Source of the DNA: Pseudomonadota bacterium
Lineage (GTDB): Bacteria; Bdellovibrionota; Bdellovibrionia; Bdellovibrionales; SG-bin7
DNA length: 29,778 nt
Direction: 5' to 3'
Assembly: GCA_034439715.1 (NCBI GenBank)
Contig: JAWXAY010000011.1
Span: 1-29,778 of the forward strand
Below are positions 6,001-12,000 of this stretch, in pieces. A program made the position numbers. Every line of letters begins with the position of its first letter. Position 1 is the stretch's first letter.

Positions 6001-9000
6001 ACAGTTTGAAGTTAATTTTTTTGGCGCAGTAATGCTGACACAGGAATTATTGCCCAAAATTAGAGAGTCTAGCGGAAGAATTATTAATGTGTCCTCTGCC
6101 TTTGGGATCGTTGGTTTTCCGTTAGCAAGCATGTATTGCGCCACCAAATTTGCGCTTGAAGGTTGGAGCGAATCATTAGCTTATGAAGTAAGCCCAATGG
6201 GCGTGAGCGTCTGCATTATAGAGCCCGGCGCATTTGATACCGGTTTTAATAAAAGTATTGAATGGGGTGTGCGCTCAGATAGCTCGTCTTCATCCTACAA
6301 AGGAATAACCCAGGGCTATAAAGCGCGTTCGACCAAAAATATAACAGGACCAGATTCGGCAATAGTGGCCGACGGAATAGTACAGGCGACAATCGCAAAA
6401 AGTGTCGCGATGAGGATTGCAATTGGTCAGGACACAAAGATCGCAGTGCGACTAAAACATTTTCTCCCTCGACAAATGTTTTTCAAAATACTGTCTCGAG
6501 TTTATAGCAAATCCCTGGGTCTAGGGTAATGCGCGAGATTGCCAGCGAGAATATTAGCAAAAAAATCGGAAGCTACAGCGCGGTTTTGAGCCTCACCGAG
6601 GTGGGACTTGGAAGCCTACTCCATGCCTTTCATATACCACTTACAGGTCATTTTTTATCTCTTAATCAAGGCTTTATACTAATTCATGCTAATAAAAACC
6701 ACGAGCACCATTCAACGACTATTTCAAACGTAGCGGCCATTTTAAAGTCATTGTCCCCGGCAGGCAAGAGACTAACTCCAATGTTAGCGATTAGTGCTCA
6801 GGGATATCTTTTCTCTGTAGGAGTTTTATTGCTCGGCTCTAATCCTGCGGGGTATTTTTTGGGAATGACGCTTCTATCGCTATGGGCGTTTCTGCAGCCT
6901 GTACTAATTTATCTATTTGTGTTTGGTGGTGGTCTAATTGCGAGCTACCAGTTTTTGTTGGAAAATCTCAATAAGCAACTGAGAATTAAACCAGAATACT
7001 TGTTGGCACTGCTGTTAGGAGGCGTTGCAATCAAGATTTTTTTGGCGTGGGCAATTGTCGGAGCCACATATCTGATCTCCGATAAAAAACAGCAGGAATG
7101 GTTGAGGCGGGTTGAAGGGGCAGGAATTAAAAGTTCTCAAAAATTAGAACAAAAAAGTGGTTTGAGTAAAGGGATAAAGAGTCTATTTCAGCCCTTTTTT
7201 TTAATATCTTTGGCAGTAACAGTAATGTTTTTTTGGTTTTCAGAAAATAAGGGGGCACCCACATTTTGGATTGTAGCAAGGCCTGTCGCCGTCATGTTTC
7301 TAATTCACTTTGGATTTCAGTTTCTGCCGGTTGAGGTCTGGGCAAAAAAACTGACGCTGAACTCAAGTTCAACGTTTGCTTGTGGATTAGCTTTTGCCAT
7401 TTCCGTCCTGAAAAATCCTCTCCGTCGCGTACCATTAAAAGCTGTGCGACAATGCTGACAGCTATTTCTGAGGGAGAGCTGCTTCCAACAGGCAAGCCGA
7501 TGGGGCAATGAATTTTGGAGATTTTTTCTTCGGGTAGGCCAGAGCTAACTAGTTCGCCCTTTAAAACGAGAAATTTAGCATGGCTTCCGATTACTCCCAC
7601 AAAGGGCGCGGTTCTGGTCGAAAGAATTTCTTTCAATATTGGTACATCGGTGGCATGACCCTGAGTCATCACTACAAACTGTGTGTTTGTAGAAAGTTCT
7701 TTAACATGGTCACAAGATCGGGATGCGCAAACAGTTTTTAGCTTTGGCGACGGTGGCAATAATTTAAGCCACTCCTCTCGAGAGTCAATACACGTGATAG
7801 CGCAATCAAGCGTCACCAAAAGTGGAATTAGAGCTTGTGCTACATGGCCAGCACCAAATACAGCAATCTTCCAAGCGTTGTGATTGTGAATTTCGAAATA
7901 AAACTTCACTTCACCGCCGCAAGTCATGCCGACGTCTGTTTGCAAGTTCCAGACAACAAAGTCTACCAGAGCGTCAGGATTCGAGGCGCTCAACATGGCG
8001 ACGGCACGAGTAATTGCTTTGGCTTCAACCTTGCCGCCACCGATTGTGCCGCACAACAATCCGTTCAAACCTACTATTGCCCGCGCACCAGCGTTGGAGG
8101 GCGTACTTCCGCGAGCTGCCACCAAAACAATTTCAACAAAAGGTATTTTTGCTATTTTTAATTCTGAAAAAATCTCAAAGTAATCTGGCAATGGGCTCCT
8201 TAATATAAATTCATTAATATTTCTTCTTGAGTCGCCGGAAGCTTTATAGTTACTGGTTTTTTACGCGCGCTAGCACTCAAAGCGTTTTTGATGGCCGTCC
8301 AAACCGATATGGCAAGAAGTAAGGGGGGCTCTCCTACCGCCTTACTGCCCGACAAATTTTTACGGTTCTCATCGTTAATTAAAAAATCGATATTAAAAAT
8401 ACGGGGTATGTCCTGCACGGAGGGGATCTTGTAGGTACTGGGCGAGCGGGTGAGGAGAGAGCCGTCTTTATTGTAATACAGTTTTTCAGTCGTGACCCAG
8501 CCCAGGCCTTGAATAAAGGCGCCGGTGGTTTGTCCATAATCAACGCCATGGTTAATGGGTCGACCCAAATCCATCAAGATATCCGTTCGCAAAACTTTCA
8601 CTTCCCCGGTAAATCGATCGATAGAAACTTCACTGGCTCCGACACCGTTCGTAAAATAGAAGAACGGATTGCCCTGGCCGGTTTCTTTATTATAGTGAAT
8701 TCCTGGATATCGGTAGTATCCGTGAGCGCCAAGACTTATACGATTCAAATACGCCGCTTCAATGACTTCTTTTAGAGGGACTCGGTCGCCGGGATTAGAT
8801 CTATTAAAAACGAATTCGTTTTCAAATTCTATGTGGTCGGCAGAATTAGACTCAACAATGTTAAACTCTTCTGCCAGTCCCATGACAGCAGGTTTTCGTC
8901 CACGTAATTCTTTTGGAGTGTTGAAAAGCTTATCTGCCACAAGCTGTAGGCGTCGCTTAATAGTTTCGGCAGCTAGTTGGGCGGCGCTGCCATTGATATC

Positions 9001-12000
9001 AGAACCGCTTGAGGCAGCCGTCGGAGACGTGTTGTGGATTTTTTCTGTTGAAGTTGGCATAACAAAAACAGCATTTTGGGGAATCGCAAAGACCTCGGCT
9101 ACAATCGTTGAGATTTTTGTATTTACCCCCTGCCCCATTTCTGTCGCACCAGTTGAAACCTGCACCGTTCCATCGAGGTGTAAGTTTACAAGGGCAGAGC
9201 CCTGGTTTAAAAAACGTGTCGTAAAAGAAATGCCAAACTTAACTGCAGTCATTGAAAGCCCGCGCACATGAGTTTTTGAAACGCGATTAAAGTCCGCGAC
9301 TTCTTTTTTTCGCTGATCATAGTTGCTTGTTTTTCGCAGTTGTTTAAATAATCGTGGAAAAATTTCTTGAGTGATAGTTTGCCCGTAAGGAGTAACATTG
9401 TTAGTTCCCTGGTAACAATTGAGTTCCCGAATATCGAGGGCATCCTTTTTTAAATATTCAGCAATTTCTTCAAGGATGTTTTCAATTGTGGCAACGCCCT
9501 TGGGCCCACCAAATCCGCGAAAGGCTGTAGTGGGAGAGAAATTAGTGCGGCAAATTAATCCTTCAATTTTTATGTGGGGAATAAAATAAGCATTGTCACA
9601 ATGTAACATCGCCCGCTCCATGATTGCCGTTGACAAGTCCGCGTAGGCTCCCGAGTCAGAAAACATGTTAACTTTCAATCCCAATATCCGGCCGTCATTG
9701 TCAAAGCCAACTTCGTAGTCATTTTCAAAGGGGTTTCTTTTGCCGGTAATTACCATATCTTCGTCTTTTGTGATTACAACACGAGCGGCTCGACCGGTTC
9801 TTTTGGCTATGAGGGCAGCGATGACTGCGAAGGGGACACCCTGTGACTCTTTTCCACCAAAGGCCCCACCCATGCGCTTCACGATACAAACCACATCACT
9901 ATAACTCAATCCAAGTGCGTGGGCGACGACGTGCTGAATTTCTGTTGGGTGTTGGGTGGACGAATGAATTGCAATTTGTCCGGCTTCACCGGGGTAAGCG
10001 ATCGCCGCCTGAGATTCCAAATAAAAGTGTTCTTGCCCCGCCATCTCAATTTTTCCCTTAATACGGTGGGGTGCATTTTTTAGAGCGTCCTCGACATTTC
10101 CTTTCTGAATTACCCTTGGTGGAGCTATGAAGGACATTTTTTTCCGAGCCTCAGCAATCGAGAGAATTGGGACGAGGGGGGTAACTTTAACCTCAACTAA
10201 CCGACGAGCTTTTCGCAGTGCTTCTGGAGTTTCACATGCAAGGGCACAAAGTGGCTCACCAAAGTAATTGATATCTTCAGCGGCAAATATTGGTTGATCT
10301 TGAAATATCGTACCCCAATAGTTTTCGGACAAATCTTTAGCAGTGTACGCGCCGACCACACCGGGTACAGCAAGGGCCTTTTTGAGATCAATCTGAACCA
10401 GTTTGCCGCGAGCCACTTGGCTGCAAACAATTCCCACGACAAGTTCCCCCGCCACAAAGGGGCGATCATCAATAAATTCGGACTCGCCGGTAACATGTGT
10501 GTGAGATGAGTCGTGCGGCGCGCTGGTCACGCGAGAGCTCCGGACTCTAAGTAAAACTTTTCTAATAGGTTGCTAGAGACCTTTCGCCGAAAGGCTTCGC
10601 TGGCGCGCAGGTCTGAAATCGGAGTGATTTCACTTTGCAGAATTTTTTGTGCGGCAGACAAAGTGCCAGGGCTAAGACGTTGGCGAGTTAGATAAGTTTC
10701 AGTTTTTGGGAGCCGTAAGACCGTGGGGCCAACACCCCCGTAAGCAATTTTGATGTCATTGATCTTTTGAGGGCCCTTCTGGATGTAAAAAGCAGCAACG
10801 ACCGATGAAATGTCGAGATCTCTTCTTTGCGAAACCTTATAAAGATAAATTTCTTCGTGCTCCGTTTGCTGGGGCACGATAACTCTTGAAATCCATTCGC
10901 CAGGTAGCAGAGCAGTTTTTTTGTATCCCTTGTAAAAGTTGATAATAGGAACTTCCCGACAAGATTTTAGTCCCTGAATTTCTACTATCGCGCCCGAAAC
11001 AAAAAGATAGGGCAAGGTATCTCCAATAGGAGAAGCATTGACAATATTACCTACCAAAGTGGCCACATTGCGTATTTGGGGGGAAGCAAAGACGTTTAGA
11101 AAGCGACAAAATGTGGGAAGTTCTTTGGTTAGAGTTTCTTGAATAGTGGCTAATGTCACCTTGGCGCCGATACTGACAGCACCTTTATTTTTTGAAATCT
11201 CAAAAAGTCCTGGAATGTGGTGAAGAGTTATGGTTTTTTCAAGGTCGATTTTTTCCTTATTAAATTGTACACCAAGATCGGTAGCCGCAGAGACTATACG
11301 GATTAACTTATTTTCTATTAAAAAATTCGAAACTTGCGAAACCGTTGTGGGCCCTAAAACCTGCTTCTCGGGAGTCTCGATTTCAAATTCAGTGCGGCCA
11401 ATAGAAATCAATTCTTTTTTAATTTGCGGGGTTAAATAGCTTTTCGATAGGGGCCTAAGTTTCGTGGCATCCACGGCAAGCCCTGCCGCGATAATGGGTT
11501 CGTAACCAGTACATCGACAGAGATTACCGGTTGTAAAATTTTTTACTTTACTGGCGTCAACTTTTTTGTGGCATTCAAACATGGCTGTCATGGCAACAAC
11601 AAAACCAGGCGTGCAAAAACCGCACTGGCTGCCAAAGCATTCAGTCATTTTTTTTTGAACTTCGCTGGAGCTGCCCTCGTTTTTAAGTCCCTCTATTGTC
11701 ACAACTGAGGCGCCATCAAGAATGTACAAGGGTGAAATACAGGAGTTCATAACCTTAAACTCTGGTGCACCTTTGGCAATTTTTCTTTCAGGAAAAGCGA
11801 CCAGAACAGAACAGGCTCCGCAATCGCCCTCGGCGCAAACCACTTTAGTGCCCGTTTTGTATAACTTGTATCGGAGATAACTACTTAAAGGTAAAAAAAC
11901 ATCGGCACCAAAAACCCGTGTAGCGTTACCGTTAATGTACATAAAAACAAAGTCTCTCTTCATTTGACATAGAGGTTAGCAACGAAGGTTGTAAAATTAC

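Follow-up and report, generated by a model that had tools for sequence, protein, structure and literature searches.

Xanthine dehydrogenase without molybdenum-cofactor synthesis in an uncultured Bdellovibrionota lineage: probable uptake of ready-made cofactor and a tentative importer

The xdh locus

The window, that is the whole stretch of 29,778 nucleotides that was analysed, belongs to a genome (G000) of an uncultured lineage, binned in 111 contigs at 95.7% completeness. Three intact ORFs, xdhA, xdhB and xdhC, occupy positions 7292-11963 of the minus strand, and an ORF here called c5 is convergent with xdhC and overlaps it by 167 nt.

6529-7458, plus strand: c5, unannotated ORF, 309 aa, polytopic membrane protein with an S-component-like predicted fold
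7292-8191, minus strand: xdhC, 299 aa, accessory protein for insertion of the molybdenum cofactor (Moco); XdhC_CoxI + XdhC_C
8200-10530, minus strand: xdhB, 776 aa, molybdopterin-binding catalytic subunit; Ald_Xan_dh_C + MoCoBD_1 + MoCoBD_2
10527-11963, minus strand: xdhA, 478 aa, xanthine dehydrogenase small subunit with [2Fe-2S] and FAD domains; Fer2_2 + FAD_binding_5 + CO_deh_flav_C

XdhB and XdhC score above the cut-offs of TIGR02965 (873.7 bits, cut-off 849.5) and TIGR02964 (167.4 bits, cut-off 161.6), and XdhA falls narrowly below that of TIGR02963 (434.3 bits, cut-off 467). An earlier note on this DNA had described a complete xdhA-xdhB-xdhC operon on the minus strand, which the ORFs and domain families confirm. 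Its span of 7292-11942 starts correctly, but position 11942 is a start codon seven codons inside xdhA, whose ORF reaches 11963. The urate-to-malate genes that it placed on contig C100 were found there.

The arrangement of two subunits plus an xdhC accessory gene is that of Rhodobacter capsulatus XdhAB and XdhC (1jro). R. capsulatus synthesises Moco itself, and MoeA/MobA hand it on to XdhC. In contrast, G000 is without MoeA, MogA, MoaA, MoaC and MoaE, and a membrane protein gene adjoins its xdhC.

The cofactor pathway is missing

HMM searches of the 95.7%-complete genome gave no match for MoaC at E<=1 and none for MoaE, MoeA_N or MoCF_biosynth, the MoeA/MogA domain. The MoaA marker Mob_synth_C and modA were scored absent, with best matches of just 11.8 and 19.7 bits. 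As positive controls, 11-14 of 14 control genomes gave matches for these families. All markers for the genes previously reported missing (MoaA, MoaC, MoaE and the MoeA/MogA domain) are negative, and the pathway is absent from G000, not overlooked. The family f1 (four genomes including G000) likewise has MoaC and MoaE in none of four, as had been claimed; yet the enzyme itself is present in only two of them, G000 and G203.

The wider claim that no gene for making molybdopterin exists had overlooked a pair of genes on C100, one MoaD/SAMP-like (89 aa) and one MoeB/MoeZ-like (ThiF + rhodanese), which adjoin an IscS-type desulfurase; some 15 kb separate this cluster from the urate genes. Two further ORFs of this cluster are un- or loosely assigned, namely a 275-aa protein without family and an acyl-CoA-dehydrogenase-like protein. 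Among five MoaC-less genomes the cluster was seen in G000 alone.

The mismatch recurs across the phylum

In a phylum sample of 201 genomes, for which the mismatch and c5 totals were counted by hand, MoCoBD_1 was found in 91, MoaC in 47 and MoeA_N in 45, the last two together in 44. The states of MoaC and MoeA_N agree in 197/201 genomes, so the pathway is all-or-none. Cofactor markers were matched in 44-47 genomes with E-values of 1e-30 to 1e-56. Both MoaC and MoeA_N are lacking in 63/91 MoCoBD_1 holders, 48 of these 63 having a MoCoBD_1 match of at least 200 bits and eight being single-contig genomes (G099, G126, G128, G131, G136, G152, G156 and G188); the mismatch is common in the phylum, closed genomes included, as the earlier note had stated. 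MoCF_biosynth was found in 169/201 genomes. In four MoaC-less closed genomes the domain is N-terminal and stands without MoeA_N or MoeA_C, in one case with a full CinA domain and in another with a sub-cut-off CinA_KH match. A MoaC pseudogene with five stops was found in G210.

The enzyme is conserved

The closest solved structure to XdhB is that of R. capsulatus XdhB (1jro_B, E 4e-174). Seven substrate- or Mo-site residues are kept, including the matches of Gln197, Glu232, Arg310, Phe344, Phe459 and Glu730 of the R. capsulatus protein. Q193, E228, R306 and E734 (R. capsulatus Q197, E232, R310 and E730) are invariant in 36/36 relatives, MoaC-less (22/22) and MoaC-bearing (14/14) alike. Full-length xdhB was present in 36/36 compared, xdhC was kept in 35 of the 36 xdh loci compared, and no internal stop occurs in any listed MoCoBD_1 match of the phylum and f15 samples. 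For four close MoaC-less genomes, dN/dS values at a dS of 0.07-0.55 were 0.00-0.025 (xdhB), 0.017-0.056 (xdhA) and 0.00-0.074 (xdhC); adenine deaminase, as a control in the same genomes, gave 0.023-0.043. These sequence comparisons indicate strong purifying selection on xdhABC with the Mo-site residues intact. Taken together, strong selection and an intact Mo site make an outside source of cofactor the most economical reading.

RNA libraries from four studies of a closed MoaC-less relative each yielded one contig covering xdhA-xdhB-xdhC-adenine deaminase, at a depth unlike that of the flanks; since DNA may be present in the libraries, this is a weak hint that the operon is transcribed there.

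c5 and its predicted fold

No Pfam or NCBIfam family matched c5, Pfam S-component families included. It has 475 homologues and, among the 120 listed, the named ones are all "hypothetical" except P0107, a fusion to a MocA-like domain. The AF2 model (pLDDT 85, pTM 0.79) was used in a wide fold search, where the best 13 rows were all ECF S-components, over residues 1-190 (Z = 12.7 for 5edl, 11.0 for FolT, 9.7 for BioY and 9.2 for ThiT), although fold matches at Z 8-13 may occur by chance for helical bundles; in Foldseek the best E-value was just 0.22. We predict from the model that c5 has the fold of an ECF S-component, a vitamin transporter. EcfT was not found in 5/5 genomes searched.

Occurrence of c5

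In the phylum sample c5 is present in 38/48 XdhB-type MoaC-less genomes vs. 6/28 with MoaC, and in 4/110 genomes without any MoCoBD_1 match. A sample of family f15 (111 genomes, tallied by hand) gave c5 in 28/29 enzyme holders without MoaC, in 6/37 with MoaC and in 0/45 genomes without the enzyme; for genomes new to that sample the counts were 22/23 (MoaC-less) vs. 4/29 (MoaC-bearing). Within f1, G203 has enzyme and c5, and G201 and G202 have neither. These raw counts are inflated by common ancestry to a degree that is unquantified. On a 44-row XdhB tree with 9-10 independent pairs, c5 behaved as predicted in 3, in the opposite way in 1-2 and without difference in 4-5, and this phylogenetically controlled pair test was not significant (sign test, p ~0.6). 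Genus g9 shows the mismatch and has no c5: it has eight XDH-bearing MoaC-less genomes in the sample, six of them single-contig, and five of these six were searched for c5 at E<=10 with no match. For this reason c5 cannot be the sole route. It is also absent from G064 and G065.

The finding of c5, with its predicted fold and its link to the enzyme-without-MoaC state, is new here. It partly answers the earlier statement that no transporter was identified, c5 being a candidate with a predicted S-component fold that tracks the enzyme without MoaC.

Gene neighbourhoods of c5

In the MoaC-bearing locus L105, the stretch from an allantoicase fusion gene to xdhC holds MoeA-MoaA-MoaC-MoeB; in L210 and L211, MoaC-less loci of the same family, c5 sits in the slot of that cofactor cassette. 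In genus g25, c5 heads the operon in MoaC-less L203, the one fully mapped, and is missing from MoaC-bearing L204. Elsewhere c5 adjoins MOSC proteins (L165, L166), MocA/MobA-like genes (L125, L131, L170), MoeA with MobB-MobA (L170) and an FAD-less XOR-family enzyme with XdhC (L131). In three genomes XdhC-like genes adjoin a fusion of a c5-like domain with an NTPase, and in a fourth they adjoin an unfused c5-like ORF. Purine-catabolic xdh operons are neighbours of c5 in 29/41 metagenome loci 6 kb or more in length, and urate oxidase or HIUase is next to it in L180, L185, L210 and L211. No Moco-linked neighbour was seen in 8 of 13 examined c5 loci without xdh. MocA is kept in the operons of the MoaC-less genomes L092 and L203. 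The theme shared by the neighbours of c5 is Moco, not purines.

Alternative explanations

We considered whether c5 carries a substrate or product of the purine pathway (xanthine, hypoxanthine or urate), with Moco, if imported, entering otherwise. The xdh and urate-gene neighbours, the genus g9 that manages without c5 and the non-significant pair test are consistent with this. A purine carrier should, however, serve the enzyme regardless of Moco synthesis, and the f15 counts differ sharply with MoaC; c5 also replaces the Moco cassette in position, adjoins MOSC, MocA/MobA, MoeA/MobAB and XdhC-like genes where xdh is not near, and is fused to MocA in P0107. We regard a purine carrier as unlikely.

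An enzyme working without molybdopterin (a Mo-independent form or one with another cofactor), or having a non-catalytic role, is an option raised for orphan molybdoproteins generally in the part of Peng et al. 2018 used here. We judge it very unlikely here, given that the residues contacting Mo and substrate are invariant, that XdhC, a chaperone specific to Moco, has been retained under constraint, and that MocA, which acts on Mo-molybdopterin only, is kept in MoaC-less L092 and L203.

Cofactor genes could also be present and missed, either because they fall in the 4% of the bin that is unassembled or because HMMs do not recognise sequences so divergent. The bin is incomplete and fragmented, the MoaD-like and MoeZ-like genes do exist in G000, and the Moco genes of relatives lie in one cluster, so that the lack of one contig might be enough to conceal the whole set. 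Against this, six separate markers are negative, f1 has MoaC and MoaE in 0/4, eight single-contig genomes are in the same state, the HMMs match control and phylum genomes, and the position of c5 next to xdhC is one typically seen where MoaC is lacking. Oversight is, in our estimate, highly improbable.

The second option raised in that part of Peng et al. 2018 is an unknown, non-homologous route of synthesis within the cell; in G000 it might involve the MoaD-like/MoeZ-like/IscS cluster. The cluster lies near the urate genes and holds the two poorly assigned ORFs, but among five MoaC-less genomes it was seen in G000 alone, so it cannot explain a phylum-wide pattern, and the loss is all-or-none. 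To our knowledge the simultaneous replacement of MoaA, MoaC, MoaE and MoeA has no precedent, and we give this route a very slim chance. Just as slim is the chance that the operon is a relic being lost or rarely active, a caveat of the earlier note: two of four f1 genomes lost the operon and the G210 pseudogene shows that decay occurs in the phylum, but a relic is unlikely because selection is strong (dN/dS 0.00-0.07 at dS 0.07-0.55) and the Mo-site residues are intact, and full-length xdhB, stop-free listed MoCoBD_1 matches and the hint of transcription, DNA in the libraries allowing, also speak against it.

Relation to known systems

The kind of mismatch has been known since 2018. Peng, Xu and Zhang (2018, BMC Genomics 19:691, PMC6147048) described "orphan molybdoprotein-containing organisms" (305 bacteria in Table 2), with homologues of Moco-dependent enzymes, no Moco pathway and mostly no Mo transporter, and G000 is in the same state. 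Their Table S1 lists Bdellovibrio bacteriovorus HD100 as Moco "-", without transporter and with three molybdoproteins, the identity of the XO column being inferred. In the part of the paper used here, unknown synthesis genes, Mo-independent forms, pseudogenes and unsequenced genes are proposed, uptake is not among the proposals, and no sequence feature was found for orphan molybdoproteins. Relative to that part, our analysis adds the selection on the enzyme, the extent of the mismatch across the phylum, its presence in closed genomes, and a candidate transporter.

According to the abstracts used, nematodes (C. elegans, Warnhoff and co-workers; Haemonchus contortus, PMC7619442) use Moco made by the bacteria they eat, and protein-bound Moco is bioavailable. 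These are animals, and C. elegans can also synthesise Moco, whereas the consumer proposed here is a bacterium. We know of no transporter named for the dietary Moco of nematodes. The earlier view that uptake has no precedent is thus qualified by the orphan enzymes and the nematodes; our literature searches found no paper describing Moco uptake by a bacterium.

No ECF module is involved when solitary BioY and BtuM transport biotin and B12 (PMC11109136, in the part consulted). Like them, c5 has a predicted six-helix S-component fold in a genome with no EcfT; unlike solitary S-components, it has about 120 extra C-terminal residues with more helices and no Pfam S-component match, and some of its relatives, unlike BioY and BtuM, bear a MocA-like or P-loop NTPase domain at the N-terminus.

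Uptake of ready-made cofactor

Without cofactor synthesis, the organism would have to obtain Mo-molybdopterin (Moco) or a nucleotide form of it from outside. The mismatch is best read as uptake of ready-made Moco, with prey as the probable source, a reading that we consider probable; as its importer, for Moco or molybdopterin, we put c5 forward tentatively. Moco is of ~520 Da and, when free, highly oxygen-labile, and Rhodobacter XdhC protects the cofactor and takes part in its sulfuration with a cysteine desulfurase. Digested prey would be the likeliest source for a predatory phylum, a habit that we assume for the lineage of G000 from its phylum. Moco freed from prey molybdoenzymes would cross the outer membrane and may pass the inner membrane via c5, which would need no ECF module, as is possible for BioY and BtuM. 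XdhC would take the Moco and insert it into XdhB; where the operon is of the second enzyme type, CMP would first be added by MocA. Supplied in this way, xdhABC would form an active Moco-dependent xanthine dehydrogenase through which purines feed the urate-to-malate genes on C100.

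The xanthine dehydrogenase genes

Three tightly packed genes on the minus strand encode a xanthine dehydrogenase (XDH) and its accessory protein, and a convergent ORF, c5, adjoins them:

6529-7458, plus strand: c5, 309-aa membrane protein, convergent with xdhC, a previously unannotated ORF
7292-8191, minus strand: xdhC, XdhC_CoxI and XdhC_C (Pfam)
8200-10530, minus strand: xdhB, hammerhead, MoCoBD_1 and MoCoBD_2 (Pfam)
10527-11963, minus strand: xdhA, Fer2_2, FAD_binding_5 and CO_deh_flav_C (Pfam)

The domains stand in the order of a two-subunit XDH (Fer2_2-FAD_binding_5-CO_deh_flav_C and hammerhead-MoCoBD_1-MoCoBD_2). 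XdhB scored 873.7 bits against TIGR02965, above the NCBIfam equivalog cut-off of 849.5, and XdhC belongs to the XdhC accessory proteins (TIGR02964, 167.4 bits, equivalog cut-off 161.6); XdhA fell narrowly below its cut-off (TIGR02963, 434.3 against 467). The closest solved structure to XdhB was that of Rhodobacter capsulatus (1jro_B, E 4e-174). In this alignment the window protein retains the equivalents of RcXdhB Glu232, Arg310, Glu730, Phe344 and Phe459, named as substrate- or Mo-site residues in PMC3311054. With three genes, a full domain set and these residues kept, the earlier note's claim of a complete xdhABC with its XdhC chaperone was confirmed, and from its sequence the predicted enzyme is an XDH of the XdhA/XdhB type. 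The downstream pathway lies on another contig, C100, where a giant ORF of about 1570 aa (C100:77280-81812; L106:2999-7723 in a second locus) follows urate oxidase and HIU hydrolase. The 1574-aa L106 copy comprises malate synthase, OHCU decarboxylase, a beta-lactamase-like domain and allantoicase, and this malate synthase-allantoicase fusion is kept across families.

A contig scan with XdhB was dominated by Actinomycetota (74 of 80 loci), with only L001-L006 from Bdellovibrionota, and loci were hence taken by coordinates. We compared 36 xdh loci of the phylum, 22 of them from genomes without the synthesis marker MoaC (MoaC-less) and 14 from MoaC-bearing genomes. All 36 had xdhA and xdhB, and 35 had xdhC. 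Four Mo-site residues, the counterparts of E232, R310 and E730 and a Gln that we take to be RcXdhB Q197, were invariant in 36 of 36 relatives. Among four close MoaC-less genomes (dS 0.07-0.55), dN/dS was 0.00-0.025 for xdhB, 0.017-0.056 for xdhA and 0.00-0.074 for xdhC, compared with 0.023-0.043 for the neighbouring adenine deaminase. For one closed MoaC-less relative there are RNA libraries from four studies, and each contained one contig running from shortly before xdhA to the end of adenine deaminase, one of which extended about 1 kb further, with a depth that differs from its flanks; since DNA may be present in the libraries, these contigs are a hint of transcription only.

The overlap of c5 and xdhC spans 167 nt (7292-7458), XdhC has 299 aa with a longer C-terminal tail (256-295 aa in all but one of 35 loci), and the C-terminal tail of c5, also longer than in relatives, extends beyond the alignment. 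At 12013-13625 an alpha/beta hydrolase gene (292 aa) stops 49 nt ahead of the xdhA start, with an FHA-domain gene on the same strand upstream; in other genomes neither is a conserved neighbour of xdh. Upstream of xdhA or next to c5 there is often a small membrane protein of the DMT_YdcZ type, about 140-170 aa long:

xdh loci: L087, L088, L089, L091, L093, L095, L116
metagenome loci: L138, L157, L160, L167, L171, L179, L181, L183, L188

Absence of the molybdenum cofactor pathway

HMM searches of the genome to which the window belongs (G000, a 95.7% complete bin) gave zero matches to MoaC, MoCF_biosynth, MoaE and MoeA_N and noise-level matches only to Mob_synth_C and modA, and control genomes gave matches in 11-14 of 14. 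The canonical pathway to the molybdenum cofactor (Moco), that is MoaA, MoaC, MoaE and MoeA/MogA, was therefore not found in this bin, as the earlier note had stated. Its wording that there was "no gene" for molybdopterin was too broad, because MoaD/SAMP-like, MoeB/MoeZ-like and IscS-type genes are present:

G000 C100, locus L201:7370-12031: sulfur-carrier cluster; the urate genes lie about 15 kb away

This cluster encodes an IscS/NifS-type desulfurase, a 275-aa protein without a family, an 89-aa MoaD/SAMP1-like protein (below both cut-offs), an acyl-CoA-dehydrogenase-like protein and a MoeB/MoeZ-like ThiF+rhodanese protein, which scored 296 against a MoeB subfamily cut-off of 266 and below the MoeB and MoeZ equivalog cut-offs. 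Because MoaA, MoaC, MoaE and MoeA are absent, the MoaD-like/MoeZ-like pair would be unable to make molybdopterin; such pairs also act in other thiolations. A weak PF00384 match (29.5 bits, 1061-aa frame), of a kind that presumably resembles ActB of alternative complex III, was left out of the Mo enzymes. With a close homologue of a Moco enzyme, an incomplete pathway and no known Mo transporter, G000 belongs with the orphan molybdoprotein-containing organisms as described by Peng et al. (2018).

MoaC and MoaE were each found in none of the four genomes of the family, but the mismatch itself is less than family-wide, for only G000 and G203 have the enzyme; G203 also has c5, and G201 and G202 have neither. 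In the phylum sample (n = 201), MoCoBD_1, the Mo-binding domain, occurred in 91 genomes, MoaC in 47 and MoeA_N in 45. As MoaC and MoeA_N were discordant in just four genomes, the pathway is either whole or wholly absent. By hand tally, neither marker was found in 63 MoCoBD_1 holders, 48 of them XdhB-type (at least 200 bits) and 8 of them single-contig genomes, which bears out the earlier view that the mismatch is widespread and includes closed genomes. MoCF_biosynth was present in 169 of 201 genomes; in four closed MoaC-less genomes it was N-terminal and lacked MoeA_N or MoeA_C, and these proteins gave one full CinA domain and one CinA_KH match below cut-off. Five MoaC-less holders had neither a sulfite-oxidase-family enzyme nor ModA, and four of the five kept a protein of another Moco-dependent family, MOSC.

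Related observations were made elsewhere in the phylum. In family f16, 13 of 14 genomes have a different XOR-family enzyme (MoCoBD_1 about 95-110 bits, frames of about 700-800 aa), MoaC occurs in one of 14 (a fragment), MoeA_N in none, and c5 is mostly lacking; by its sequence this would be another clade in which Mo enzymes are orphans. An enzyme-less genome carries a MoaC match with five in-frame stops (one TGA, one TAG, three TAA; G210:C13:26862-27263) that looks like a pathway in mid-decay. Genome G064, MoaC-less and without c5, has a MocA/MobA-like NTP_transf_3 gene after xdhC (L092:5648-6268), a predicted cofactor-modifying enzyme retained without cofactor synthesis.

Sequence and predicted fold of c5

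There is no earlier annotation of ORF 6529-7458. Profile searches placed c5 in no Pfam or NCBIfam family, and among 120 of its 475 homologues that were listed, the named ones were "hypothetical" save one fusion. The protein is polytopic and spans the membrane, and its sequence is conserved, with 22 invariant positions across 44 sequences. For homologue P0020, one listed source is Bdellovibrio sp. qaytius. Membership in an S-component sequence family was not found: the 44 members shared no common Pfam family at E<=5, giving scattered weak matches to unrelated families only. An AlphaFold model from the 44 sequences (pLDDT 85, pTM 0.79) was searched against 48,161 representative chains. The best 13 matches were all ECF S-components (Z 7.8-12.7), led by 5edl (12.7), FolT (11.0 and 10.0), BioY (9.7) and ThiT (9.2), followed by PanT, RibU, HmpT, CbiM and NikM, with CbrT and BtuM lower; 146-163 residues were aligned, over model residues of about 1-190. 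Foldseek also ranked 5edl first, with a probability of 0.98 but an E of 0.22. A six-helix S-component fold is thus predicted for c5, with the reservation that helical bundles can score high by chance.

EcfT/CbiQ, the partner ECF module, was found in none of five genomes, and c5 was for this reason filed as solitary S-component-like rather than as an ECF subunit. The solitary S-components BioY and BtuM transport without an ECF module, according to PMC11109136, and c5, if a transporter, would likewise act alone. In the Atlas c5 matched only "hypothetical" clusters; by structure, the lead was to one in which Trep_Strep occurs in 22% of members. One Atlas cluster was of Bacteroidota, a further phylum that would have c5. 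Complex prediction for c5 and XdhC scored 0.00, which is uninformative for or against interaction.

Distribution of c5

Eight MoaC-less loci of the 22, spread over several families, have c5 next to xdhC, as against none of the 14 MoaC-bearing loci. By hand tally, c5 occurred in 50 of the 201 genomes, 46 of which hold MoCoBD_1: in 38 of 48 XdhB-type MoaC-less genomes, 6 of 28 MoaC-bearing holders and 4 of 110 without any MoCoBD_1 match. Within family f15 (n = 111) it was found in 28 of 29 MoaC-less holders, 6 of 37 MoaC-bearing holders and none of 45 enzyme-less genomes; the corresponding values were 22/23 vs. 4/29 for f15 genomes new to the second sample and 21/21 vs. 5/23 by genus. Three genera have both states among enzyme holders (g25 3:3, g40 4:1, g47 3:1), with c5 always on the MoaC-less side.

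These genome counts are non-independent. An XdhB tree with 44 rows showed at least 10 changes of the MoaC state and at least 7 of the c5 state, and among the 9-10 independent pairs differing in MoaC, c5 differed in the predicted direction in 3, in the opposite direction in 1-2 and not at all in 4-5 (not significant, p ~0.6). The tree conflicts with genus codes, placing G177 and G190 away from their genus mates, and xdh clusters therefore seem mobile between lineages, with the Moco cassette or with c5; the tree suggests that whole clusters moved horizontally within the phylum.

The ten c5-less XdhB-type MoaC-less genomes were eight of genus g9, G064 and G065. Searches of five closed g9 genomes with a wider c5 profile gave no match, even when relaxed to E<=10, and this genus provides 6 of the 8 single-contig MoaC-less genomes. 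It also has a MoaC-bearing member, G164. No convincing stand-in was found there: c31, c32 and c33 are small conserved neighbours without a family, only c33 being a membrane protein (3 hydrophobic segments), and some loci lack the DMT_YdcZ gene.

Genomic neighbours and fusions of c5

In a MoaC-bearing locus of family f15 (L105), the stretch from the allantoicase fusion gene to xdhC is occupied by MoeA, MoaA, MoaC and MoeB; c5 fills this slot in two MoaC-less loci of that family (L210, L211). In genus g25, c5 heads an operon of XdhB-like, FAD-subunit, xdhC and MocA-like genes in MoaC-less L203, and MoaC-bearing L204 has the same operon without c5. MoaC-less L206 has c5 immediately ahead of an XdhB-like gene at the contig end. 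Of the 41 metagenome loci with a length of 6 kb or more, 29 had an XdhB-like gene, of one of two enzyme types, close to c5.

For thirteen c5 loci without typical xdh, the 53 closest ORFs out of 100 were scanned. Within these ORFs 8 of the 13 loci had no Moco-related neighbour. In the others c5 adjoins a MOSC_N+MOSC protein (L165, L166) or a MocA/MobA-like gene (L125, L131), accompanied in L131 by XdhC and a FAD-less XOR-family enzyme, and in L170 it lies amid MoeA, MobB-MobA and another MocA-like gene. In homologue P0107 a MocA-like domain is fused to c5. A diverged c5-like domain is fused to a P-loop NTPase in 5 of 7 loci inspected and in P0121, the sole additional fusion in a search for longer c5 proteins. 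Four f15 genomes have a c5-like gene between XdhC-family and DUF364/DUF4213 ("putative heavy-metal chelation") genes, away from xdh genes; the c5-like protein carries an N-terminal NTPase_1 in three and is unfused in the fourth (L217):

L212:2318-5320, L215:1805-4953, L216:1956-4957, L217:2301-5023: DUF364/DUF4213, c5-like and XdhC-family cluster

Judging by these genes, the common factor of the c5 neighbours would be the cofactor rather than purines.

Discussion

Moco is held too unstable for sharing between cells, and bacteria are assumed to be self-sufficient. We consider it probable that G000 is auxotrophic for Moco, retaining an enzyme that needs it and acquiring it ready-made from external sources. 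The prey would be the source, and the habit of this uncultured lineage we infer from its phylum; among named genomes, those of Bdellovibrio and Bacteriovoracaceae have the closest XdhB (53-61% identity). We tentatively propose c5 for the inner-membrane step of uptake, as a specific candidate that lends itself to testing. Imported Mo-molybdopterin would be handed by c5 to XdhC or MocA; the NTPase-fused form would be an energised variant, and a MocA-fused variant also exists. It is conceivable, if somewhat doubtful, that the c5 family represents the first bacterial Moco importer, solitary and S-component-like, passing Mo-molybdopterin to XdhC/MocA, permitting loss of both the pathway and the molybdate transporter and letting bacteria live on the cofactor of others.

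A role for c5 in molybdate transport was set aside, since molybdate would be useless to MoaC-less genomes, in which MoeA and MogA are absent.

Five rival explanations were ranked. The strongest is that c5 carries purines and Moco enters by another route: a minority of genomes have c5 beside MoaC, which fits salvage alongside synthesis but also other roles, and genus g9 shows the mismatch without c5 or an obvious stand-in, but the theme shared by c5 neighbours is the cofactor. A Mo-independent XDH comes second, to be set beside Mo-site residues that do not vary. Third is that Moco genes were missed in the incomplete G000 bin; the eight single-contig genomes show the same mismatch. Fourth is synthesis of Moco by another, unknown pathway; among the five MoaC-less genomes the sulfur-carrier cluster is confined to G000. 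Last, a relic, which the earlier note had allowed for, is contradicted by the xdhB dN/dS of 0.00-0.025 and the 36/36 invariance, and on these sequence comparisons xdhABC is not one.

The earlier note knew of no precedent for Moco uptake by bacteria. Orphan molybdoenzymes as such have been published: Peng et al. (2018) described 305 bacteria with Moco enzymes and no Moco pathway, and their Table S1 lists Bdellovibrio bacteriovorus HD100 as an orphan molybdoprotein holder (PMC6147048). That paper makes no uptake proposal, and for uptake the statement stood, as we found no proposal of it in bacteria in the literature on Moco or XDH with Bdellovibrio, ECF S-components, or salvage and transport.

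Several hundred "orphan" molybdoenzyme genomes have been without explanation since 2018, and a c5 importer, if real, would account for a large share of them. With a candidate transporter named, simple genetics could test the idea. The candidate may also be relevant to Moco delivery in human cofactor deficiency, for which we know of no carrier. If the cofactor is taken from outside, Moco would join B12, haem and vitamins as a traded metabolite, and loss of the Moco pathway would signal a lifestyle of dependence or predation.
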